From Gemmata obscuriglobus (GTDB lineage: Bacteria > Planctomycetota > Planctomycetia > Gemmatales > Gemmataceae): a stretch of DNA of 32,000 nucleotides. Where the stretch lies: positions 2,640,001 through 2,672,000 of the forward strand of contig NZ_CP042911.1 in NCBI RefSeq assembly GCF_008065095.1, in the 5' to 3' direction. Positions 4,870-31,903 of the stretch are shown here, piece by piece; the first letter of the stretch is position 1; each line of letters starts with the position of its first letter. Position numbers and translations under genes: made by a program. The notes under the pieces were generated by a model. The model had not been told where the DNA came from, made no database searches, and saw only the letters and a list, made by a program, of their open reading frames with translations.

Positions 4870-4984
4870 TTCAGGCGTTACCTAAAGGCTAACCCCGACG
4901 ACACTTCCGATCCAGTCAGGTTTGCCGGCCGAGTGCTCTGCCTACGCTAAATTTTCGGGTCGGAACACCCTGCTTTTGCAGGAA

Positions 4985-5084
4985 CTATCATGTACGTACC
5001 CGGTAATGCGGCCGCTTTTGTTGACGAGCCGCGACCGCCGGGGAGCGGGAGACGTGGCACCGCTCCCTGGCCAGTAGTTTCAAG
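4985..5084. repeat. IS-A left terminal inverted repeat (contains internal hairpin GGGAGCGG...CCGCTCCC)
   Basis: Sequence: ..TCATGTACGTACCCGGTAATGCGGCCGCTTTTGTTGACGAGCCGCGACCGCCGGGGAGCGGGAGACGTGGCACCGCTCCCTGGCCAGTAGTTTCAAG. Its reverse complement matches the right end. Confidence 0.65.
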
Positions 5085-6249
5085 TGGTTGCGGTGGTTGT
5101 AAGTGTTTTGTTCGGCAGTGTGATACATCGCGTGCGTGGGTACCGGGCGCGGATGCGTTGTGTGAGCCAGTCGAGCATCTCGGCCAACGGGAACTCGGCC
5201 ACCCACGCGCTCGGCGCGAGCCGTTGTGCGCGCGCGATCCGGAGGGTCAGGCACACCCACACTTGTCGCAACAGCAACGCCACCCCTTCGAGCAGCCGTC
5301 GGTACTCGGGGTCGGTGCGGGTGGTCCACCCGCGGGCTTGATTCTTTTGCCGATAGCTGGTCTCGATCCCGAACCGCTCGCGGTACCGGCGGCGGCCCAG
5401 CCGAGCCCGGTTCGCCTCGGACACGGCGGTCGCATCGCCCCACCCGCGGAACGCGTACACCCGGGCCGCCCCTTCGCCCGTGCGCTCCCACACCAACACC
5501 CGGGTGGACACCGCCTGACGGGTCTTCTCGGTCACCCGTTCCATCGTGGTGATGGTGCCCGACGGTTGGGTGTAGCACTCGTTGCGGCGGTTGGTCCCTT
5601 TGCCCTTCTTGCGGATCGGCACCGTGTAGTTGAGGTTCCGTTGCTGCAACAGCAGCAACGTTTCCCCGCTGTCGAACCCGGCGTCCAGCACCACCCCGCG
5701 GACCGTCAGCCCGCGGGCAACTACTTGATCCAGAAGGGTTTGCACCTGCTGGTGCGGCTTGACGCCCTTCGTTACGCTCATCAGCCCGACGGTGTAACGC
5801 CGTCGCTTATGAATCAGAACGCAGGTGGCGTACGCATGGAAGAATGAGGTGCCGGCCTTCTTGGGTCCGCCGATGATGCCCGGGGTGCTGCGGTCCCCGT
5901 AAAAGGGCACGTAATGCACGTCGATGGCGCACGTCCACCGGCGGGTCCGGTCCCGGCGGGTGAACGTCGCCACGTCGTGAAGGGCGTCCACCAACCGGGT
6001 CGTGAGTTGGTCCCGGGAGCCCAGGTTCGCGCGCAGCGCCTGCCGCGCGGTCTGGTGGGAGAACCCGAAGTACCGGGTGACCACCGCGAACAGGGTGCGG
6101 GTGGTGCCCGCGATCAACAGCACCAGGTCCAACAACTGGGTGCGCGTCACCGACTGCTTGTAGTCGGTCCAACCGAGTGCCCGAGCCAACGTTCGCCGGG
6201 ACAACGCATGGACCACCGCCGGGGTGATCGTAGAGTAACCGCGTCGCAT
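5080..6249 (-). CDS. DDE transposase of IS-A (IS4/ISH3-like)
   Basis: Intact 389-aa ORF. Candidate catalytic residues lie in CAIDVHYVPFYG and VVLDAGFDSG. The YREK-type signature RRYRERFGIETSYRQKNQ is present. The stop codon lies inside the left repeat. Confidence 0.85.
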   Translation of the reverse strand: MRRGYSTITPAVVHALSRRTLARALGWTDYKQSVTRTQLLDLVLLIAGTTRTLFAVVTRYFGFSHQTARQALRANLGSRDQLTTRLVDALHDVATFTRRDRTRRWTCAIDVHYVPFYGDRSTPGIIGGPKKAGTSFFHAYATCVLIHKRRRYTVGLMSVTKGVKPHQQVQTLLDQVVARGLTVRGVVLDAGFDSGETLLLLQQRNLNYTVPIRKKGKGTNRRNECYTQPSGTITTMERVTEKTRQAVSTRVLVWERTGEGAARVYAFRGWGDATAVSEANRARLGRRRYRERFGIETSYRQKNQARGWTTRTDPEYRRLLEGVALLLRQVWVCLTLRIARAQRLAPSAWVAEFPLAEMLDWLTQRIRARYPRTRCITLPNKTLTTTATT

Positions 6250-6366: not shown

Positions 6367-7839
6367 TAATGGCACTCGTTTTATGTTGGTGTGTGGTTGG
6401 TGGTGGTTCGCGGTTTGCGTTTTTTGAACTGGTCGGCTTTCGGGCGCCTCGGGTACGCCTCTCGCTCGTACCGGCGATCGGGCGGGCGTTGGGGTAGTCG
6501 GTCGCGCATGGCGTACCCGAGCGCCCGCTCGTAACCGGCGCGCCATTGCCCCGCCGTCGTGAACATCTTTCCCAGCAAGAACGTTCGGAACGTGGTCCAC
6601 ACGCGCTTAAAACTCAGCTCCCGTGGCCGGCACTTGGCCCGCTCGGCCGCTTGCCGGCGGAACGGCACCACTAGGTTGTACGACACCACCGACATCAGCA
6701 ACTCCTTACGGAACATCGCCTCGCTTCGCACCGCCATGTGCTCGGTGTTCAGCACCACCTTCACGTTCCGGATGTCCACTTCCACGGTGCCCCGTTGCCG
6801 GTACCACGAGCCCACGTCGCTGGCCGTGGCGTCCGTGTCCGTCACCACCGCCAGCGCCCCGCCGTTCGGTATGCTCACCTCGTGCACCCGCGCCTTCAGC
6901 TCGGCGTCCGCCGCCCACTCCGGGTGCTTGCGCCGCTCCTTGGCGCTGGGGCGCCACGCGAATTCCCCGGTCCACCACCCGTCCCCACGGCCCACCTCAC
7001 GAGCCGTGCGGCGGTATGCGGTGAACCGCGCCGCCGTCAGCCGGAACACGAACCCCAGGCCCCGCGCGCGAGCCCCGAGCGCCACCGCGAAGATCCCGAA
7101 CCCGGCGTCCGCCATCACCACCCCGTTGGCGGGCAGGCGGTCCATGACGGCCCCGGCCAGTGCCGTTTCCGACACCGCGTGGGGGCCGAACGTGGCCCCC
7201 ACTTCGGGCACCACGGCGGCCCCGCTACTCAACTCGTGGGCGACCACCAGCAGTGCCACCGGCCACACCCCGCGGCCGTGCGGGTTCGTGGCCGGTGGGT
7301 ACTTCTCGCGGAGCTCGGGTTCGGGGGCCAGGGTCCGGGTGGTGCCGTCGATCAGGAACACGCGCCGCCCGGACCACGTGGGCGGGGCACCGTCGATGCG
7401 CGCGCGGCTCACATGGTCGGCGAACCATCGGGCCGCTTCGAGCGGTAGCCACTGGCGGGCGTCGGAGTAGCTGCTGGTATTCGACGACAGCGCGTTCTCG
7501 CGCACCCGCTTGGTGTTAGGGAGCAAATCGGGTCGGGCGTCGAGCAGATGCTTGACGGTGGCTTCCAGGGACTTGTCGGGGTGGGTGCGCTGGTACACGA
7601 GCATCCAGAGGATGACCGAGGCGGTATACACGGCGTTGGCCCGCCGGGGGAACCGGGCATCGGCCTCGGATGGGTCGAAATGAGCGGCGAGGAGGTCGAA
7701 CGCGCGCTCGAACTCCTCGCCCGTCGGTCCGGAAGGCTCGGTCATGGCAACGGTTCCGTCGGTGGATGACACAACCAGTGCGCAATAACCGTGCCAACGA
7801 GCACCCGAAACACACCAAAACTGAAAACGAGTGCCATTA
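6367..7839 (-). mobile_element. IS element 'IS-B' (IS4 family), 1473 bp, nested in the right repeat of IS-A
   Basis: Perfect 16-bp terminal inverted repeats: TAATGGCACTCGTTTT at 6367-6382 and AAAACGAGTGCCATTA at 7824-7839. The element is flanked by a 10-bp direct duplication. Removing IS-B plus one duplication copy restores the IS-A repeat. Confidence 0.8.
6381..7745 (-). CDS. IS4-family DDE transposase of IS-B
   Basis: Start taken at ATG 7745 (MTEPSGPTGEEF...). The longer ORF reaching 7910 would begin outside the element. Motifs are RVFLIDGT, VVMADAGF and YRQRGTVEVDIRNVK (YREK-like). Confidence 0.85.
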   Translation of the reverse strand: MTEPSGPTGEEFERAFDLLAAHFDPSEADARFPRRANAVYTASVILWMLVYQRTHPDKSLEATVKHLLDARPDLLPNTKRVRENALSSNTSSYSDARQWLPLEAARWFADHVSRARIDGAPPTWSGRRVFLIDGTTRTLAPEPELREKYPPATNPHGRGVWPVALLVVAHELSSGAAVVPEVGATFGPHAVSETALAGAVMDRLPANGVVMADAGFGIFAVALGARARGLGFVFRLTAARFTAYRRTAREVGRGDGWWTGEFAWRPSAKERRKHPEWAADAELKARVHEVSIPNGGALAVVTDTDATASDVGSWYRQRGTVEVDIRNVKVVLNTEHMAVRSEAMFRKELLMSVVSYNLVVPFRRQAAERAKCRPRELSFKRVWTTFRTFLLGKMFTTAGQWRAGYERALGYAMRDRLPQRPPDRRYEREAYPRRPKADQFKKRKPRTTTNHTPT

Positions 7840-7849
7840 CCCTGGCGGT
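7840..7849. repeat. target-site duplication of IS-B (right copy, CCCTGGCGGT)
   Basis: See 6357-6366. Confidence 0.75.
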
Positions 7850-7897
7850 CGCGGCTCGTCAACAAAGCGACACCGCGGGTGGGTTCATGTATCAGGC
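7850..7897. repeat. IS-A right terminal inverted repeat, outer part
   Basis: CGCGGCTCGTCAACAAAGCGACACCGCGGGTGGGTTCATGTATCAGGC continues the match to the reverse complement of the left repeat. Confidence 0.55.
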
Positions 7898-8633
7898 GCC
7901 GGCGCCACAATCGCCCCTCCGCTACTTCGCGACATCACCCGAGCAATCGCCAGATACAAAATTTACGTCAAGTCCTGCGGGATGCCCCGCGTTCAGTTCT
8001 GCCCCGATCGATACCCGGCCACGTTTGAGGGCACGCCACAACGTCCGATGTTCCCCAACCGAGGCGGTTCGCGTGACAGCAAAAACGATGTCGTCAGGAT
8101 TTCACCACATTTTCGTGAAGAAATGCGATCACTTCCCCGTAGTAGAATCGCGGTGCGGCCGGACCGGTCACTCGTCCATCTGAAGCGATTGAAGTCCGCC
8201 GGCCGCCGCAGGAAATTGCTGTACAAGCTGTGTAAGAACGTTATTCTGGATTACGCTGCTGCCGCGATCGTTGGCCAGCGCCGGAACCGGGACTGGTCGG
8301 AGCGATCCCAGTCGTTTCAAGTTCGCACCTCGGACCGGTGTGTTAGTTCGGATTGTGGTCCGCTCACGCCGCGAGCGGTCCATCGGCGCCTCGGATGCGC
8401 GTGTCGCACAACGACGGAGCGAATGACACCGACACCGGGAGCGGTTCGGTTACGCGAAGCGACCGCTCACGGCCGGAGCGGACCACACCCCAGGCCCGAA
8501 CCACGCGCGAACTTGAAACGACTGGACTCGCCGGACGCGGCAAGGAGTGGTGACGCCCCGGGGGCGATTTGGCACGCGAAATGCCACCGATTCAGGCGCT
8601 CACGCTCCGCCCAGTTACCGCCCAGAGCGAACG

Positions 8634-22587: not shown

Positions 22588-22726
22588 CATACATGACCAC
22601 ACGACCACCTGCGGTGTCGCTTGTGTTGACGAGCCGCGACCGCCAGGGAGCGGGATACGTGGCAACGCTCCCTGGCGGTCGCGGCTCGTTAAGACAGCGG
22701 TAGCATTACCGGATACGTGTATCAGG
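22588..22726. mobile_element. MITE-like palindromic element (~140 bp), an internally deleted derivative of IS-A in the opposite orientation
   Basis: The left part matches the reverse complement of the outer IS-A right repeat. The right part matches the reverse complement of the outer IS-A left repeat. The junction falls at CGCTCCCTGG|CGGTCGCGG. The whole element folds as a long hairpin: GACGAGCCGCGACCGCCAGGGAGCG...CGCTCCCTGGCGGTCGCGGCTCGT. Confidence 0.65.
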
Positions 22727-23506: not shown

Positions 23507-23592
23507 CGGTGTTGGGTGCGTGTGTGAAGGAATGGCGTCTTGTTGTGGAACCGTCCGGTACACGATCCGGTGGGGGGTGGTGTCTGCTTCTT

Positions 23593-23656
23593 GTGGCACA
23601 GACATTCTTGTCTGTGCAGCTTTGCGATCCCGCACCGACAGGAATGTCTGTGCCAC
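23593..23656 (-). promoter_or_regulatory. three-segment alternative-pairing structure in the nuoN-tatD intergenic region
   Basis: GTGGCACAGACATTC (23593-23607) is perfectly complementary to GAATGTCTGTGCCAC (23642-23656). Its core GCACAGAC (23596-23603) also pairs with the adjacent GTCTGTGC (23610-23617). Confidence 0.35.
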
Positions 23657-23702
23657 AAAAACAAAATCCGAAACAGACGCTCGAACCGAACCGTGAATGC
23701 GT

Positions 23703-25401: not shown

Positions 25402-25493
25402 CAGTAGTTCCAAGTTCCAAGTAGAGTCACGAGCCGCACGAACCGTTGGAACTTTTGACGAGCCCTGGGCCGACTTGGAATCTGGAACTACTG
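25402..25493. repeat. imperfect palindromic element overlapping the 3' end of the toxin-fusion ORF
   Basis: CAGTAGTTCCAAGTTCCAAGT (25402-25422) against ACTTGGAATCTGGAACTACTG (25473-25493), with 19 of 21 positions complementary. The spacer contains CACGAGCCGCACGAACCG and TTGACGAGCC, which resemble the IS-A repeat motif TTGACGAGCCGCGACCGCC. Confidence 0.45.
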
Positions 25494-26008
25494 GAATTGC
25501 TACGACCGCACTCCACCCAGCATTGGCGGTGACGAGCAACTCCCGCCGCACCCCCGCTCTCGCCTCTTTGTGGGGAGCGGGCCAGTTCGATTTGTGGACG
25601 AATGAATTGCGCCAGAGCGGCGTCGCTCTCACCGCCCTTCTCTTCCAAATAGTCGGCGTAGACGAGCCGCGCGGTGTCGTCGTCCGGGTCGGCAGTAACG
25701 GCGGCCAGCAGCGCGGCTTCGGTGGACACGCGAGCACCCTCACGCGAACAGTTCCCGACCCACTTCACGGCCGCAACGTACACCACCTTCGCTGCGTCGT
25801 CGATGAAGAACGCGACGCACAGCGGGCGATGGAACCACAACCGGATGTCAGCCCGCTCGCGCGACTCGCCCAGGTCGAACGGCCGGTCGCGGAGCAACCG
25901 GTTAACGACATCGGCCAGTTCGGCGATCGATTCTTTCAGAAACGCTCGCGCCCACAACCAGCGCAAACGCGCCTCCGCGAGCGGCAGCCAGCGCACGGTG
26001 TAGTTCAT
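25427..26008 (-). CDS. RelE/ParE-like toxin fused in frame to a TIGR02996-type N-terminal domain, with a degenerate C-terminus
   Basis: Residues 1-86 read MNYTVRWLPLAEARL...IRLWFHRPLCVAFFIDDAAKVVYVAAVKWVG, which has the RelE/ParE pattern. Next comes (GTG)STEAALLAAVTADPDDDTARLVYADYLEEKG...FIRPQIELA, the TIGR02996 signature as I remember it. The last ~35 aa are encoded by the palindromic element. Confidence 0.55.
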   Translation of the reverse strand: MNYTVRWLPLAEARLRWLWARAFLKESIAELADVVNRLLRDRPFDLGESRERADIRLWFHRPLCVAFFIDDAAKVVYVAAVKWVGNCSREGARVSTEAALLAAVTADPDDDTARLVYADYLEEKGGESDAALAQFIRPQIELARSPQRGESGGAAGVARHRQCWVECGRSNSSSSRFQVGPGLVKSSNGSCGS

Positions 26009-26250
26009 CGCCCCTCCCGCAAATCGCGGAGGATGTCTTCGAGCGGCCGGCCGGGGCCGGTCTGATCGAACGCTTCCCTCAACTCTTCTTCCGTAAACGG
26101 CTCCTCAATCGGGATGCCCATCAGCCGGTCCAGCGCGGCCGGCGACAGCGCGTAAGCGATGACCGCCCCGGACTCGTCGCACAGTTGCACCGGTTGGCCC
26201 AGCCCGCTCAGTTTGGCCCGCGTCGCGGCGTCGAGAATCACCTTGCTCAT
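26005..26250 (-). CDS. putative antitoxin (81 aa)
   Basis: Its stop overlaps the toxin start by 4 bp (ATGA). It is small and acidic. MSKVILDAATRAKLSGLGQPVQLCDESGAVIAYALSP... resembles small antitoxin-like proteins found upstream of toxins in cyanobacteria and planctomycetes (from memory). Confidence 0.5.
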   Translation of the reverse strand: MSKVILDAATRAKLSGLGQPVQLCDESGAVIAYALSPAALDRLMGIPIEEPFTEEELREAFDQTGPGRPLEDILRDLREGR

Positions 26251-26743
26251 GTGTCACCTCCTCCACGCATGATACCACCCGCGGCGGGTCAACAGAACGG
26301 GGACCGAAGCCCCGTCGCGAACCGCGCCACGCCTTCAGCGCGTCGTCGTGCCGGCCCCAGCTCGGCGGTAGGTCGGCCCTCCGGCAGTTCGCCAGCGCCG
26401 TCTTCGCGCCGGCGAGGCGGTGAAGATCGCTTTCAGGTTCGGCACAGTCGAGCCCCTGGGTGAACGGCAGAGCAGAAGTGCGGGCGCGCGCAACTGACGA
26501 GCCCAGTGTGTGGGAAGGGGTCGCCCGGATGGAATCGCGAGCGGTGCGACGAGTGCGGCGCCGGCGGAACGAGACGGGCGAACGCGCACGCGGTCAGTGG
26601 ACCGAAAAGGGACAAGGGTCTTGAGCACGGGAGACGTGCGGGGGTACACTTCGGGCGTGTTGGCCCGAGAGAACGCGCTGGCTCACGAAAGTCGGATGCA
26701 AAGGTCACCGGGCGCAGCATCGGAATGACGTTCGCGCGAACCG

Positions 26744-26809
26744 TTACCGTGTTATTGTGCGAGCCGTGAAGGGTAGGGCTCAGTTTCGCACGGCCCATTA
26801 CCGTGTTAT
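26744..26809 (+). repeat. 12-bp perfect direct repeat TTACCGTGTTAT (26744-26755 and 26798-26809) in the ORF-less leader region
   Basis: Exact duplication 54 bp apart. A related CCGTGTTATTG occurs inside repeat B2 at 29549-29559. Confidence 0.6.
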
Positions 26810-26882
26810 GTCGCATATTGTGGAGATATGCCGTCACATGGTAACATAAGGCCGTTGAGTCGTTCGGTTCCTGACTCGCGGT

Positions 26883-26942
26883 GCGCCGGGCGAAATTGCC
26901 GCACTAGTGCACGAATCATCGCACATTAAACACCGGTTCGGC
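26883..26942 (+). repeat. B-type repeat B1 (ends in GGTTCGGC), upstream of the first cassette ORF
   Basis: GCGCCGGGCGAAATTGCC...CGAATCATCGCACATTAAACACCGGTTCGGC is homologous to 29531-29592. Confidence 0.6.
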
Positions 26943-26967: not shown

Positions 26968-27498
26968 ATGACCAAGGATGAATGGCTGTCCTGCACCGAC
27001 GCGATGGCGATGTTGCAGTTCCTTCGTGACCAGCCGGTCTGTCGGCCGAGCTCTCGGCAACTTCGGTTGCTCGCTTGTGCTTGCTGCCGCCACGGATGGG
27101 ATCTTCTGACCGACCAACGAAGTCGCAACGCCGTGGAGATCGGAGAACGGTACGCCGACGGCCGCGCCTCGGACCGGAAACGCAGGAGTGCGTATCGGGC
27201 GGCCTCGGATGCCGCCAGAGCGATGCTTGGCGACATCGAACGTGCGGAGCAGGCCACCGGAACGTACGACACCGATGAGTTGGATGCCGCGGGAGCTGCA
27301 CTTACAACGGTTCTCACGAACCACCAACTGCGGTTGTTCGGTAGGCTGGCGAACTGGGACAAGGTGGTCTATCTCGCCCGCTACCGTGTCGGGCGCAAAC
27401 TCTGGGAGGACCTCCCGTCGGCCGAGGACGTGGCACCGCGACTGGTGCGGGACATCCTCGGCGGCCCTTTCGGCCCGGTTGCGGGCTCCCCCGTTTAG
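26968..27498 (+). CDS. hypothetical protein resembling the module that normally follows TIGR02996 domains ('headless' copy)
   Basis: 176-aa ORF containing W..CTDAMAMLQFL...RQLRLLACACCRHGWDLLTDQRSRNAVEIGERYADG...RDILGGPFGPV. I recognise this from memory as a Gemmata/myxobacterial paralog family. It ends 17 nt before repeat A1. Confidence 0.6.
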   Translation: MTKDEWLSCTDAMAMLQFLRDQPVCRPSSRQLRLLACACCRHGWDLLTDQRSRNAVEIGERYADGRASDRKRRSAYRAASDAARAMLGDIERAEQATGTYDTDELDAAGAALTTVLTNHQLRLFGRLANWDKVVYLARYRVGRKLWEDLPSAEDVAPRLVRDILGGPFGPVAGSPV

Positions 27499-27515: not shown

Positions 27516-27605
27516 GCCGAGCCCGGCGTTGCACCTGACAACGCCATGTAGTTTGGACGGCATCGCGCCCTTGGAGGGACGGTGCAGGCGATCTGTACGT
27601 TCGGC
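27516..27605 (+). repeat. attC-like repeat A1 (most degenerate copy)
   Basis: GCCGAGC-CCGGC-GTTGCACCTGACAACGCC...GGACGGTGCAGGCG-ATCTGTAC-GTTCGGC. Confidence 0.6.
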
Positions 27606-27623
27606 CACCCGAGGACATCACGG

Positions 27624-28025
27624 ATGGAATCGCAAGAGCCGCGTGTTTCCTCTGACCCGTTCCAGGGTCAGCCCGCGCAGTGCCCGTGCTGCGGTGCGCC
27701 GTTCCCAGCGGCCGGCACCGATGTCGGTGAGTGGGTGGCCAGTTATGTGGCCGGTTTCGAACCCGATCAGATGAGGGTAGTCAGTAACACGTTGTTCCGG
27801 GGCAGATGCTCGGAATGCGGTACGGCTCTGTGTGCCCCGGGGACGGGAAAGCACACTTTGGGACGAGTGCGAGCCGGCCACGGTTGTTTGGTTTCGCGAC
27901 CGGCAAGCAGAAGTGACGCACCGCGTACCGGCCCCGCCCGCGCATTGGCCGCGTCGGGCACAGGTTCAGTAACATCGACACCGGCGCGCCGATCTTTCCG
28001 GAATGGCCGAGTTCAATCGCGATGA
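27624..28025 (+). CDS. small zinc-ribbon protein (CPCC...CSEC); C-terminal half doubtful
   Basis: ATG at 27624, 18 nt after the GTTCGGC of A1. The first ~75 aa look protein-like (two CxxC pairs). The rest is Arg/Ser/Ala-rich. Confidence 0.4.
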   Translation: MESQEPRVSSDPFQGQPAQCPCCGAPFPAAGTDVGEWVASYVAGFEPDQMRVVSNTLFRGRCSECGTALCAPGTGKHTLGRVRAGHGCLVSRPASRSDAPRTGPARALAASGTGSVTSTPARRSFRNGRVQSR

Positions 28026-28038
28026 GGCGAAACAAGAG

Positions 28039-28129
28039 GCCGAACCCGGCGCGGCACCTGACACCGCCCGCTGACTTGGATGGCATCGCTCACGGTATGA
28101 TGGCGGTGCCGGTGAACTGGATGTTCGTC
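28039..28129 (+). repeat. attC-like repeat A2
   Basis: GCCGAAC-CCGGC-GCGGCACCTGACACCGCC-33 nt-GGCGGTGCCGGTGAAC-TGGAT-GTTCGTC. Confidence 0.65.
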
Positions 28130-28142
28130 AACCCGAGGCCCC

Positions 28143-28580
28143 ATGCGTCGGAAGCGCTGGCTTGCACTCACCGTCGCGGCGCTCGGCCTCGTCGCATTGG
28201 CCGGTTGGGCGTACTGCCGTCCGCCTGCCGTCAACGCCCTCGACGCCACCGCGATCCGCTCCGTCGAAGTGCACATGTACCCGTGGGGCCACGAGGCCAC
28301 TGCACCGCCCGGAACAACGTCTACCGACTCTGCCGCGATTGAGGAGTTGGTAAGCGTGCTCCGCGCTGGCACCGAGGCCCAGTTTCACAAGTGCGGGTCG
28401 CGCGGGGGGCTCATCGTGCGGCGGTTGTTCGGTCGCCCGCTGTTGGTCGAGTTCCTACCCGGACACTCTGCCGAGTGGTACGAGTTCCATTACGACGGCA
28501 AGCCGTACCGAGTTCCACGGGCGGCGTTCGTGAACGCGATGCGGCGGTTCGGGGTCGCGGTTCCACTGGAGTGCCCGTAG
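28143..28580 (+). CDS. membrane-anchored or secreted hypothetical protein (145 aa)
   Basis: ATG lies 13 nt after A2. The N-terminal anchor is MRRKRWLALTVAALGLVALAGWAY. The stop is 1 nt before A3. Confidence 0.6.
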   Translation: MRRKRWLALTVAALGLVALAGWAYCRPPAVNALDATAIRSVEVHMYPWGHEATAPPGTTSTDSAAIEELVSVLRAGTEAQFHKCGSRGGLIVRRLFGRPLLVEFLPGHSAEWYEFHYDGKPYRVPRAAFVNAMRRFGVAVPLECP

Positions 28581-28581
28581 A

Positions 28582-28671
28582 GCCGAAACCGGCGCTGCAC
28601 CGGACACCGCCACCGGCCACCGTTGTGGTGCTCACTGCATCACGGCGGTGCAGGTGAGCTGTCAGTTCGGC
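28582..28671 (+). repeat. attC-like repeat A3
   Basis: GCCGAAA-CCGGC-GCT-G-CACCGG-A-CACCGCC-32 nt-GGCGGTG-CAGGTG-AGC-TGTCA-GTTCGGC. Confidence 0.7.
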
Positions 28672-28701: not shown

Positions 28702-29316
28702 GTGTTGCGGTTGCTGGGACTCGGCTTGGGGTGGATCGCGCTCGGCGCGGCCGTCTCTCTCCTCCTACTGGGATTCACGGTCGGTGCGTTCGCCGTAGTG
28801 GTCTTGTCCGCCCCCGTGCTCGGCGAGGAGTACGGAACCGCGGTTGGACTTTCCCTGCTCTGCGTCGGCCTGCCGATCTCGTTCGTGCTCGCGGTGGCCA
28901 CCCACGAATTGGGGCACGTGTTCGCGGGCGCGTGCGCGGGGTTCCGCCCCCAGTTCGCCCATATCGGGCCGATCACCTTCACCCGGCGGGCGGGGCGCTG
29001 GAGGCTCGGGTGGGACGGGCGGCAGTCCTGGCTGGGCGGTCGGGCCGTCTGCGCCCGCCGGCCGGGGAGCCGGGCTCGCGTTGCGGCCTTCCTCTTGGCT
29101 GGGCCGTCGGCCAACTTGGTGACGGGTGTGGCCGCGGCCGTGTGGTTCGCCGACGCCGGATCGCCCGCGCTGCCGCGCTGCTGGGCGGGGCTATTCGCCG
29201 TTCAGTCCCTGTTCTTCAGTGTCGTAAACCTCGTGCCGGTGAGGTACCGGCGGCTCGACTCAGACGGACTTGCCCTCTGCCGGCTGTTCGCCGGTTGTGG
29301 GCTGAAGGGCGAGTAA
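28702..29316 (+). CDS. small membrane metalloprotease, M50/site-2-protease-like
   Basis: GTG at 28702 lies 10 nt after AGGAG (28687-28691). There are about 5 TM segments. HELGH sits in a TM helix, and NLVPVRYRRLDSDG resembles the NxxPxxxLDG second motif of S2P proteases. Confidence 0.55.
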   Translation: MLRLLGLGLGWIALGAAVSLLLLGFTVGAFAVVVLSAPVLGEEYGTAVGLSLLCVGLPISFVLAVATHELGHVFAGACAGFRPQFAHIGPITFTRRAGRWRLGWDGRQSWLGGRAVCARRPGSRARVAAFLLAGPSANLVTGVAAAVWFADAGSPALPRCWAGLFAVQSLFFSVVNLVPVRYRRLDSDGLALCRLFAGCGLKGE

Positions 29317-29323
29317 CAACCGA

Positions 29324-29431
29324 GCCGAACCCCGCGCGGCACCGGCCACGGCCATGCCACAATCTGACACCCGCGCGCGGACCCATGAGGCGCGGTCCTT
29401 GTTGACCGGGTGCCGGCGCTCGTTGTTCAGC
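29324..29431 (+). repeat. attC-like repeat A4 (divergent, 108 bp)
   Basis: GCCGAAC-CCCGC-GCG... ...CGC-TCGTT-GTTCAGC. The outer boxes, 5-nt spacers and 3-bp inner box are conserved, but the inner stem differs. Confidence 0.5.
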
Positions 29432-29530
29432 AACAGGGCCTGGTTGCCGCTTGGCGCCTCGGCCGCGTGCTGGTCTAATCGCATTTGAGCTGCCGTAGTA
29501 AGAGCACCGAGTCCAGCCCGAGCGCGTGGC

Positions 29531-29592
29531 GCGCCGGGCGAAATGGCCCCGTGTTATTGCGCGAAGCCTCGCACACTAAACACAGGTTCGGC
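29531..29592 (+). repeat. B-type repeat B2
   Basis: GCGCCGGGCGAAATGGCCCCGTGTTATTGCGCGAAGCCTCGCACACTAAACACAGGTTCGGC is homologous to B1. Confidence 0.6.
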
Positions 29593-29653: not shown

Positions 29654-30037
29654 ATGCCTCGGCCCCTGTTGGCATTCGTTGTTTTCTCGCTGTCCGCCTC
29701 GCCGGGCATGGCCAGCGACTTGAAGGCTGTCATCTACGAGGTTCAGTCCGTCACTGTCCCCAGCGGGAAGCACGCCGGTGCAGACGGATTTCTCCTCCGC
29801 GCTGAACCCCAAGAGGGAGAGAAGGACGGCAGGACCGTCACCGTGCCTGACCTGAAGAGCGTCCGGCTCACCATCAATGGTAAAGCGGCTACACGGGCTG
29901 AGGTCATCGGGTGGGTGTCCGATCAGAGGTATCCGCGCGTCGAGGTGACGACCGATCCTCAAAAGAATGATGCGCCAGTTCAGCTCCGCTTCTACGGCTG
30001 CCCGCCGGAGTCGCGGGGGAAGAAGTCCGACAAGTGA
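29654..30037 (+). CDS. secreted hypothetical protein (127 aa)
   Basis: ATG at 29654 follows GGGAGGG (29638-29644). The signal peptide is MPRPLLAFVVFSLSASPGMA. Confidence 0.6.
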   Translation: MPRPLLAFVVFSLSASPGMASDLKAVIYEVQSVTVPSGKHAGADGFLLRAEPQEGEKDGRTVTVPDLKSVRLTINGKAATRAEVIGWVSDQRYPRVEVTTDPQKNDAPVQLRFYGCPPESRGKKSDK

Positions 30038-30066: not shown

Positions 30067-30157
30067 GCCGAACCCGGCGCTGCACCTGACACCGCCATCG
30101 GATCTGCGTTATGATGCTCACTCGATCCTGGCGGTGCAGGTGAGCTATTCGTTCGGC
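30067..30157 (+). repeat. attC-like repeat A5 (best-folding copy)
   Basis: GCCGAAC-CCGGC-GCT-G-CACCTG-A-CACCGCC-33 nt-GGCGGTG-CAGGTG-AGC-TATTC-GTTCGGC. Confidence 0.75.
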
Positions 30158-30174: not shown

Positions 30175-30639
30175 ATGTCGTGGTTCCCGGACATGGGAAC
30201 GGCTTGCATGATCGCCCACGGGGATCACGTCCGTGCGGTCGGCTGGCTGTCCGACCAGCACCCGTTCCCGACGGGCGACACACCGCCCGAGTTCCTGGCG
30301 CGGCTGAAGGAGTTCTGCCGGCGGTGGGACGAAGGGTTGGGGCCGCTGGTCTGGGATGTCTTCATGGGACCGCACCGCTGCGAGTTGTGCGGCCGGTGCG
30401 TGGCCAGTGGCAACATCGGGGTGCCGGCAGGGGGTGTGCTGTTCGCCGCCCCGGAGATGATCGCCCACTACGTCGAGGTTCACAAGTACGCCCCGCCGGC
30501 CGAGTTCGTAGCGGCCGTGCTGTCGGCGCCGCTGCCCGGCACCAGGGAGTACGCGGTGGCGGTGGCGGCGTTCCGAGCCGTCGCGCTCCAGCAACAACTC
30601 GGCGAGCTGTATCGGCCGGGTCAGCCACCGCGAGCGTAG
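30175..30639 (+). CDS. hypothetical protein (154 aa) with a CxxC motif
   Basis: ATG at 30175 follows AGGAGGG. Motifs are WLSDQHPFPTG...HRCELCG...PEMIAHYVEVHKYAPPAEF. It looks like a conserved family, but I cannot name it. Confidence 0.6.
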   Translation: MSWFPDMGTACMIAHGDHVRAVGWLSDQHPFPTGDTPPEFLARLKEFCRRWDEGLGPLVWDVFMGPHRCELCGRCVASGNIGVPAGGVLFAAPEMIAHYVEVHKYAPPAEFVAAVLSAPLPGTREYAVAVAAFRAVALQQQLGELYRPGQPPRA

Positions 30640-30648
30640 CAAAGGCCG

Positions 30649-30741
30649 GCCGAACCGGGCGCGGCACCTGACACCGCCGGCTGATATGCGACGTGCCGAT
30701 CGTCCGTGGTGGCGGTGCCGGTGAGCTATTGTTCGTTCGGC
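30649..30741 (+). repeat. attC-like repeat A6
   Basis: GCCGAAC-CGGGC-GCGGCACCTGACACCGCC-32 nt-GGCGGTGCCGGTGAGC-TATTGTTC-GTTCGGC. Confidence 0.7.
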
Positions 30742-30760: not shown

Positions 30761-31903
30761 ATGCGACACGGCCTACTTGCTCTGGCGCTTCTGTTCGCCC
30801 CGGTCGCGGCACGCGCGGACGAGAGCGAAGACGCTGCGGTCAAGGCTGTGGAAAAGGTCTATGGGAAAGTGCTTCGTGACGCCAACCAGGTCATCACAGG
30901 TGTCGATCTCTCTGCGGGAGCTGCCCAAGGGCACCGGGTGACGGACGAGGAGCTGAAGGAATTGCTGCCCCTCAAGAGCCTGACCTCCATCGACCTTTCC
31001 CACACGGGCGTGACAAACGCGGGACTGAAGGTGCTCGTAGCCTTCAAAAGCCTCACGACCTTATCTTTGCACGACACCGGGATCACGGACGCCGGTTTGA
31101 AGGAGCTGGCACCGCTCAAGAACCTCACCGCCTTCAACCTGTCCAACACGAAGGTAACGGACACCGGTCTGAAGGAACTAACAGCAATCAGGAATCTCAC
31201 CGCTCTTCACTTGCGAAAGACAGAGATCACGGACGCCGGCCTGAAGTCACTGCCACCCATGAAAGATCTCACCACCCTTGACCTGTCCGACACGAAGGTT
31301 ACGGACGCCGGTCTGAAGGCGCTGGCACCGCTCGAGCGGTTGACGAACCTCTACCTGTACAACACGGAGGTCACGGACACCGGATTGAAGGAACTGGCTC
31401 CGTCGAAGAACCTCGCCGTCCTGCTCCTGTACAACACGAAGGTCACAGACGCGGGGCTGAAGGAACTGGCTCCATTAAAGAGTCTCTCAGTCCTCGTCTT
31501 GGGCGAAACGGAGGTTACGGATGCGGGATTGAAGGAGCTGGCTCCACTCAAGAACCTCACGGCTCTCAACCTGTACGGCACGAAGGTTACGGACGCGGGG
31601 GTAAAGGAACTCGCGCCATTTCAGAACCTCACCCTACTCGACCTGAGCGGCACGAATGTTACAGACGCGGGAATTAAGGAACTGGCGCGATTCAAGAACC
31701 TCGCCCACCTCGAGCTGTCCTCCACAGCGGTAACGGATGTCGGCTTGAAGGAGCTGGCATCACTCAAGAAGCTCACCAAACTATTCCTGATTAGTACGAA
31801 GACCACATTCGCCGGAATTAAAGAGTTCCAAAAAGCCGCGCCCAAATGCGATGTCTGGAACACCCTGAGTCTTAAAGGCCAGCCCGCGCTTGGGAAGTGG
31901 TAA
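30761..31903 (+). CDS. secreted leucine-rich-repeat protein
   Basis: Signal peptide MRHGLLALALLFAPVAARA, followed by about 12 tandem 24-aa units of the type LKELAPLKNLTALNLSNTKVTDAG. Confidence 0.85.
   Translation: MRHGLLALALLFAPVAARADESEDAAVKAVEKVYGKVLRDANQVITGVDLSAGAAQGHRVTDEELKELLPLKSLTSIDLSHTGVTNAGLKVLVAFKSLTTLSLHDTGITDAGLKELAPLKNLTAFNLSNTKVTDTGLKELTAIRNLTALHLRKTEITDAGLKSLPPMKDLTTLDLSDTKVTDAGLKALAPLERLTNLYLYNTEVTDTGLKELAPSKNLAVLLLYNTKVTDAGLKELAPLKSLSVLVLGETEVTDAGLKELAPLKNLTALNLYGTKVTDAGVKELAPFQNLTLLDLSGTNVTDAGIKELARFKNLAHLELSSTAVTDVGLKELASLKKLTKLFLISTKTTFAGIKEFQKAAPKCDVWNTLSLKGQPALGKW
30926..31817 (+). repeat. tandem 72-bp coding repeats (LRR units)
   Basis: The DNA motif ...ACGGACGCCGGTCTGAAGGAACTGGCACCGCTCAAGAACCTCACC... 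recurs with a 72-bp period. Confidence 0.8.

Follow-up and report, generated by a model that had tools for sequence, protein, structure and literature searches.

The cassette array at the locus

The window analyzed here is a stretch of 32,000 nucleotides (nt) from the chromosome of the planctomycete Gemmata obscuriglobus (RefSeq assembly GCF_008065095.1, contig NZ_CP042911.1, positions 2,640,001 to 2,672,000 of the forward strand), which has a G+C content of about 67% and encodes the planctomycete marker families DUF1501 and PSCyt2/PSD1. Close to its 3' end lies a series of short open reading frames (ORFs) that are separated by six copies of a palindromic repeat, referred to as A1 to A6, and headed by a leader element, B1, of which a second version, B2, is found further inside. 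One of these repeats, A5 (30067-30157, + strand), is very probably an integron attC site, situated in a Gemmata cassette array without integrase, i.e. in an attC site cluster that lacks an integron-integrase (CALIN). One gene of the window is identical to a gene of assembly GCA_000171775.1 (contig ABGO01000246.1), a record prefix that belongs to G. obscuriglobus UQM 2246.

Read along the + strand, which carries all of the following features, the array opens with the attI-like leader B1 (26700-26942) and cassette ORF 1 (26968-27498; 176 amino acids (aa), no Pfam match), which is followed by A1 (27516-27605), a partly degenerate site, and cassette ORF 2 (27624-28025), again without a family match. 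A2 (28039-28129) separates the latter from cassette ORF 3 (28143-28580), whose 145-aa product has an N-terminus that resembles a signal peptide by eye, and A3 (28582-28671) precedes cassette ORF 4 (28702-29316), which encodes a membrane protein with a weak match to Peptidase_M50. Then comes A4 (29324-29431), an aberrant or decayed attC-like palindrome, with the second attI-like leader B2 (29432-29592) placed between it and cassette ORF 5 (29654-30037). The stop codon of this ORF precedes A5, and cassette ORF 6 (30175-30639), a DUF7919 member, begins 17 nt past the 3' end of A5. Finally, A6 (30649-30741) is followed by cassette ORF 7 (30761-31903), which codes for a leucine-rich-repeat protein of 380 aa.

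The six repeats measure 90-93 nt, or 108 nt in the case of A4, and their spacing gives cassette units of 524-760 bp. Every copy begins 1-29 nt past the stop codon of a short + strand ORF, and all except A4 finish 13-31 nt ahead of the next start codon. With their AAC and GTT ends, their position directly after ORF stops and their clustering in one orientation, the sites bear out the canonical orientation that an initial annotation of this DNA had proposed. The cassette ORFs are mutually unrelated and most of them lack a family match. Since five further attC sites follow in an overlapping contig (L063), the array runs past the end of the window and is a co-oriented array of at least 11 cassettes.

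Structure of the A5 site

On the + strand, A5 is composed of an outer box R'' (GCCGAAC, 30067-30073), a 5' spacer (CCGGC, 30074-30078), an L'' box (GCT, 30079-30081), an extrahelical G (30082), one half of a 6-bp stem (CACCTG, 30083-30088), an extrahelical A (30089) and one half of a 7-bp inner stem (CACCGCC, 30090-30096), after which a loop of 33 nt (30097-30129) leads into the 3' arm (GGCGGTG, CAGGTG and AGC, 30130-30145), a 3' spacer (TATTC, 30146-30150) and the closing box R' (GTTCGGC, 30151-30157). This layout agrees to the nucleotide with that of the initial annotation. Counted from the first base of A5, the two bulges occupy positions 16 and 23 exactly (G16 and A23). R'' and R' form a perfect 7-bp box, the central spacer of 5+5 nt is non-complementary, and the crossover is predicted to fall between the G and the TT of R' (30151/30152).

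Folded as single-stranded DNA (ssDNA), A5 reaches a minimum free energy (MFE) of -26.2 kcal/mol on the + strand (z -5.17) and of -28.4 kcal/mol on the - strand (z -6.23), and not one of 200 dinucleotide shuffles folded as well on either strand. The MFE structure of both strands reproduces the order of R box, spacer, 3 bp, G16, 6 bp, A23, 7 bp and loop, with an additional short helix placed within the loop. The folding of the six copies thus supports the proposed geometry for A5 on both strands, but not for A1, A2, A3 and A6, whose MFE folds taken alone are not significantly better than those of shuffled sequences. For these four copies the attC architecture therefore rests on the family alignment described below.

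The individual copies depart from A5 to different degrees. A1 carries the R'' variant GCCGAGC, pairs two of the three L-box positions and has one mismatch in the stem, while A2 retains only one of three L-box pairs and five of six stem pairs and ends in GTTCGTC. In A3, R'' reads GCCGAAA and the stem has five of six pairs, with an intact L box, and A6 combines two of three L-box pairs with a 3' spacer of 8 nt (5+8). As a consequence of these R'' variants, the AAC triplet is replaced by AGC in A1 and by AAA in A3. The bulged A23 is present in A1, A2, A3, A5 and A6, the 3-bp L box together with G16 is intact in A3 and A5, and a GCTCAC motif recurs in the loops of A2, A3 and A5; on all of these points the copy-by-copy inspection upholds what had been read from the sequence initially, including the two of three L-box pairs in A6. 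Loops across the Gemmata repeat family likewise retain a GCTCA(C/T) motif. The initial annotation had further stated that both bulges always sit on the stop-codon-proximal arm. This holds for A1, A2, A3, A5, A6 and for the 150 family copies examined, but fails for A4.

A4 has a family-like 5' arm only, its 3' arm being rearranged, and lies directly 5' of B2. Its reading as an inverted attC site, prompted by bulges that fall on the other arm with a spacing of 6 bp, was rejected, as the minus strand scored 8.7 bits with the Gemmata model introduced in the next section (R1) and gave no match with the canonical one (R3). A4 is hence treated as a rearranged copy.

A single sigma-70-like promoter match (CTGACA, 18 nt, TATGAT; 30086-30115, + strand) lies inside A5, where 0.6 would be expected by chance. 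Its first hexamer belongs to the conserved 5' arm (CCTGACACC).

Comparison with canonical attC sites

Known attC sites are described by R' and R'' boxes in which an AAC triplet is conserved, a central spacer that leaves 5-6 nt unpaired on each arm and extrahelical bases on the L'' arm that, on the bottom strand, are usually G at position 16 and a conserved T at position 23/24 (PMC5027507). A 6-bp stem is required to lie between the first extrahelical base and the last, the sites span 57-141 bp, and the bottom strand is the more stable and purine-rich one (PMC5027507). For a direct comparison, 12 attC sites, or 59-base elements, from class 1 integrons on plasmids were used (aadA1, aadA2, psp, qacL, aac(6')-IIc, aacA4, dfrA14, dfrB1, dfrA27, estX, cmlA1 and lnuF), all of which share one frame of 7 nt, 5 nt, 3 bp, extrahelical base, 6 bp and extrahelical base. 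This frame is identical to that of the Gemmata sites, as seen for aadA1/aadA2, aac(6')-IIc, dfrB1, estX and cmlA1. In both groups, R'' has 7 nt and ends in AAC, the spacer measures 5 nt and the L box 3 bp, the extrahelical base at position 16 is separated by a 6-bp stem from an extrahelical A at position 23 of that arm, and the 3' arm is mirrored and leads to an R' that begins with GTT.

The same correspondence emerges from covariance models, in which each group's model finds the sites of the other group in register. R1 was built from five window copies with the structure given in the initial annotation, and R3 from 14 canonical attC sites of class 1 integrons on plasmids, the natural loops being retained; E-values of the models are rough, as they derive from short calibrations. 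R3 identifies A5 as the best match on either strand of the 32-kb window at its exact coordinates (37.4 bits, E 8.6e-8) and aligns it over its full length, the two bulges being in register. Next in rank are A3, A6, A1 and A2, again at their exact coordinates (15.4, 14.8, 13.2 and 11.0 bits, respectively), so that five of the top seven R3 matches in the window are A copies, and A4 is absent. R1 scores the copies themselves at 105 (A5), 94.9 (A2), 91.4 (A3), 87.2 (A6), 83.9 (A1) and 25.3 bits (A4). Across the Gemmata loci described below, R3 recovers 168 sites at E <= 0.01. Reciprocally, when R1 was run on 91 kb of plasmid DNA, the ten best matches were all canonical attC sites on the correct strand (35.3-17.3 bits), with noise beginning at 16.5 bits. 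A third model, R2, was built from arm-only constructs with a 6-nt loop, as MAFFT had slipped the 3' arms of full-length canonical sites. It found no A copy, a negative result that is uninformative since R2 also missed canonical sites of 82-114 nt, including a member of its own training set, and gave estX only 14 bits. Along with the linkage to integrases considered below, the features from PMC5027507, the 12 class 1 sites and the reciprocal recognition thus sustain the attC architecture first proposed from the folded repeat.

The Gemmata sites also have traits of their own. They are longer (90-112 nt versus 57-86 nt in class 1, with a terminal region of 33-54 nt), and, unlike the mobile class 1 sites, they are chromosomal and highly homogeneous in sequence. 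On the top strand, the first extrahelical base is always G in Gemmata, in contrast to C in nine and G in three of the 12 mobile sites, of which 11 have A as the second extrahelical base. One member of the class 1 set comes particularly close: attC(estX) (4908-4977 of the plasmid locus L070) agrees fully with the long Gemmata class described below (e.g. L058 3637-3748) in its L box, both bulges and the 6-bp stem, with a shared core of GCT, G16, CACCGG and A23 opposite CCGGTG and AGC. This likeness could be due to convergence or hint at where that cassette type originated.

The repeat family in Gemmata

An exact-pattern scan for the 5' arm in one genome per species returned 62 loci, nearly all of them from Gemmata or other Gemmataceae (G. 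algarum JC673 and Gemmata sp. SMAG_U3706, IIL30 and CJuql4). R1 detects about 300 A copies in 327 kb of these Gemmata loci. They always form tandem, co-oriented arrays, and no locus carries copies on both strands.

Family statistics were derived from the 150 best R1 copies, whose alignment was fitted to the model and is hence biased toward its structure. Within this set, G16 is kept in all 150 copies and A23 in 145, insertions in the 3' arm do not occur, and AAC and GTT are kept in at least 146 and at least 136 copies, respectively. Standard pairs fill 95.4% of the pair cells, as opposed to 29-43% when the partners are slid by 1-3 columns, and three stem pairs show compensatory changes on both sides. 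The family falls into length classes of about 90 and about 111 nt. In an independent MAFFT alignment of the latter, the frame is the same and the bulges are unchanged, although the stem sequences differ in a compensated manner (CACCGG/CCGGTG and CCCGGCC/GGCCGGG). The bulges, which could have proved unconserved or prone to switch arms, are conserved and keep to their arm, with A4 as the only exception.

A comparison between genomes gave no direct sign of recent cassette mobility and yielded only paralogues with 26-47% identity. For instance, paralogues of cassette ORF 1 (26-46% identity) occur in at least seven other Gemmata arrays (L006, L040, L047, L049, L025, L011 and L057). Among 72,556 plasmids, blastn returned chance-level matches to A5 only (E 0.3-0.9), a search whose reach ends short of structural sites of 90 nt.

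Short contigs of G. algarum (292-1396 nt) often start or stop inside an A repeat (L007, L015, L018, L023, L031, L033, L036, L041, L044, L048, L050, L052 and L055). The attC family evidently breaks short-read Gemmata assemblies, and array sizes are therefore underestimated.

Integrases and attI-like leaders

Related genomes link the repeat family to integron integrases. A tblastn search with IntI1, using a probe 100% identical to the annotated protein, revealed proteins of 51-55% identity in four Gemmata loci (L039, L020, L003 and L004), all of which pass the NCBIfam profile TIGR02249 "integron integrase" with 367-450 bits at a cut-off of 265. In each of the four, a distance of 0.8-3 kb separates the integrase gene from the first A repeat, which lies downstream of it on the same strand, and a fifth locus (L022) holds a C-terminal integrase remnant of 47 aa. 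An "inverted integron-integrase" arrangement has been documented (PMC4889954, PMC8352920). The four loci match this group in that the integrase is found upstream and on the strand of the A array; the window array itself differs by having no integrase.

Parallels also exist to sedentary chromosomal integrons of the type that carries Vibrio cholerae repeats (VCRs). Here, too, highly similar attC sites that are specific to a genus or species occur in many copies (for background, see PMC5027507 and PMC8352920), arrays are long and co-oriented, most cassettes are of unknown function and the terminal structures are long. VCRs, however, have three extrahelical bases (G16, T20 and T24 on the bottom strand; PMC5027507), in contrast to two in Gemmata (C16 and T23). 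Moreover, unlike in VCR systems, the integrase of the Gemmata relatives is co-oriented with the array, and their arrays are split among numerous loci that mostly have no integrase.

Directly ahead of a cassette ORF, the leaders B1 and B2 both close with CGCACAyTAAACACnG and GTTCGGC, and direct repeats of the CCGTGTTAT type are contained in each of them; in B1, these are followed at the end by TAAACACCG and the GTTCGGC core. A search with nhmmer found only seven copies of B: besides the two of the window, there are five in G. algarum (L013 7049-7132, L038 300-382, L058 2680-2757, L060 3714-3797 on the minus strand, and L008 51-80). Every copy is placed at the 5' head of an A array, and none adjoins intI in these loci. 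Over stretches of 27-30 nt, B is almost the same in sequence as the DNA that begins right behind the integrase stop codon of L039 and extends through the GTTCGGC core (z = 13.6 and z = 6.5 relative to shuffles); the heads of the other three integrons give weak matches (z 0.2-4). Judged from this sequence similarity, B is best read as a putative attI-type site that heads integrase-less arrays, and the placement of B2 right behind the aberrant A4 suggests a tandem of two platforms.

CALIN are defined as two or more attC sites that share a strand, lie less than 4 kb from one another and have no intI in the vicinity (Cury et al. 2016; PMC4889954). The window array, with its six sites, five more in L063 and no intI, falls within this definition, and differs from it by the attI-like leader at its head and the second one inside. 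No description of attI-like leaders on CALIN was found in the literature examined, and such leaders lie outside the CALIN definition. Conceivably, Gemmata chromosomes contain many "satellite" integron platforms that are headed by B, have no integrase and rely on one or a few integrases that are encoded elsewhere and act in trans. In that case, B1 and cassettes 1-4 would form one platform of the window, and B2 and the cassettes from 5 onward another, with A4 at the junction. This proposal is put forward tentatively, and the odds are rather against it.

Weighing of alternative explanations

Several observations weigh against A5 as an integron attC site in a CALIN-type array. Each R box deviates at one position from the consensus RYYYAAC/GTTRRRY (G instead of Y at position 4 and, in R', C instead of R at position 4). 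On the bottom strand, T23 follows the attC rule, but position 16 is C in all Gemmata copies instead of the usual G; three of the 12 canonical sites (estX, cmlA1 and dfrA14) have the same C16, which places it within known variation, although the departure is a consistent one. As to the relative stability of the two strands, the bottom strand is favored by 2.2 kcal/mol in A5 and is the more stable one in 90 of the 135 family copies folded (Wilcoxon p = 4e-4), but the mean advantage of -0.48 kcal/mol is small and three of the six window copies show the opposite direction. Purines are only marginally enriched (fraction 0.518), and G:T wobbles (51 on the bottom versus 36 on the top strand) show a slight bottom bias. 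If made as in the systems studied so far, strand choice would depend chiefly on where the bulges lie. In the bottom-strand fold of A4, both bulges lie on the opposite arm, 6 bp apart. The L-box, stem or R-box mismatches of A1, A2, A3 and A6, which reach only 11-15 bits with R3 (E 0.06-0.8), imply that some window copies may be poor substrates. Lastly, Pfam scans of all large ORFs in the window gave no tyrosine recombinase, and tblastn with IntI1 and a Gemmata integrase, at E up to 10, detected no intI across 27 kb upstream and 7 kb downstream (L063).

A complete integron would have intI next to its array, within about 4 kb. The missing integrase makes this a CALIN-type array that is either served in trans or a relic. 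In the latter case, the repeats would be derived from attC sites and form a fossil that is no longer recombined, which is a possible, though doubtful, reading. It would account for the lack of intI in both the window and L063, for the mismatches and weak canonical-model scores of A1, A2, A3 and A6, for the rearrangement of A4, for an IS1-like fragment within the downstream part of the array, and for the failure to detect recent cassette exchange beyond paralogues of 26-47% identity. Yet A5 is a perfect site, and the retention of G16, A23 and pairing with compensatory changes over some 300 copies implies ongoing selection. Integrases also exist in related genomes, mobilization of CALIN cassettes in trans has been proposed (PMC4889954), and the window is only a fraction of a genome in which intI may be encoded elsewhere.

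Two further explanations dispense with integrons altogether. An intergenic RNA hairpin that acts as terminator, stabilizer or processing site, with a merely coincidental likeness to attC, would fit the position of the repeats between co-oriented ORFs and the top strand, i.e. the mRNA sense, folding nearly as well as the bottom strand. The initial annotation had named compensatory changes as a sign of such an RNA; they do exist, but would be expected of an RNA structure and of an ssDNA hairpin alike and cannot separate the two. What speaks against a terminator is the linkage to integrases and the absence of a T-run from the 3' flanks (e.g. CACAGGAGGGCTCGGGGATG), as well as a terminator scan that flagged no full A repeat and showed no enrichment, with five sites against 3.7 in shuffles. 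Moreover, the next ORF begins 13-31 nt further on, the repeats have attC-specific traits in their invariant bulges at 16 and 23, their unpaired spacer of 5+5 nt and their AAC/GTT ends, and canonical attC models recognize the family, which leaves the RNA hairpin highly improbable. The high copy number, the palindromic and intergenic nature of the repeats, the breaks of draft assemblies at their positions and the presence of two DDE transposase genes in the window could instead be taken to indicate a repetitive extragenic palindrome (REP) or miniature inverted-repeat transposable element (MITE) that was spread by a transposase unrelated to integrons. However, the copies are not scattered but confined to tandem arrays of a single orientation, in which each unit has one ORF and no locus carries the repeat on both strands. 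Neither target-site duplications nor terminal inverted repeats were seen, the transposase genes are about 20 kb away, and architecture and integrase linkage are those of attC, so that this origin is scarcely credible.

Other features of the window

Within cassette ORF 7, ten tandem units of 72 nt are found. On the 3' side of this ORF, before the next attC site, lies a minus-strand fragment of an IS1-like transposase gene (L063 1790-2089). Just upstream of the array are two overlapping minus-strand ORFs (26005-26250, 81 aa, and 25427-26008, 193 aa). The 81-aa product has a 79%-identical partial copy about 11 kb away, at the far end of the downstream contig (L063 7008-7121, minus strand), and genes related to this ORF may flank the array or recur in it. 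The 193-aa product resembles, by eye, the planctomycete repeat-companion domain TIGR02996.

Farther upstream, two strong inverted repeats, one of 31 nt (94% complementary; 22622-22696) and one of 30 nt (90% complementary; 23588-23661), with loops of 13-14 nt are located near a TatD gene, the second one between TatD and a NuoN-like gene. The adjacent transposase genes at 5080-6249 and 6381-7910 (both minus strand), about 20 kb upstream of the array, are of the IS4/IS5 type (Pfam DDE_Tnp_1). Scans of the window with Rfam at the gathering threshold and for tRNAs returned nothing.

Proposed mechanism and implications

By homology with the IntI1 and VchIntIA systems, recombination at A5 could proceed via the bottom strand, which in the ssDNA state would fold into the hairpin. 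Two integrase monomers, perhaps supplied in trans, would bind the R box (GCCGAAC/GTTCGGC) and the L box, while the bottom-strand bases C16 and T23 on the arm opposite 5'-AAC-3', together with the unpaired 5+5 nt spacer, would mark the substrate strand. Cleavage is then predicted between A and C of the bottom-strand AAC, which corresponds to the position between G and TT of GTTCGGC on the top strand. Recombination between two attC sites would accordingly excise cassettes, which would be inserted at attI in one orientation only.

A5 is a known kind of element in a little-studied genus and not a new type. Planctomycete integrons have been reported since 2007-2008, IntegronFinder detects them (PMC4889954) and a planctomycete-specific attC model has been published (PMC8352920); no paper on Gemmata arrays specifically was found. 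With planctomycete integrons and their attC sites already catalogued, the assignment by itself raises no new question. It does allow an integron cassette array to be marked out over about 5 kb of the window and, on the chromosome, over at least 10 kb, which accounts for the short, unrelated and mostly unannotatable ORFs as well as for the breaks in draft assemblies. Furthermore, the attC frame with bulges at 16 and 23, a 6-bp stem and a 5-nt spacer is nucleotide-exact between Planctomycetota and the mobile integrons of γ-proteobacteria, a conservation that is useful in annotation and in tracing the origins of cassettes. The more interesting lead is provided by the attI-like leaders of integrase-less arrays: if Gemmata does maintain satellite platforms of this kind, attI can persist and work apart from intI.

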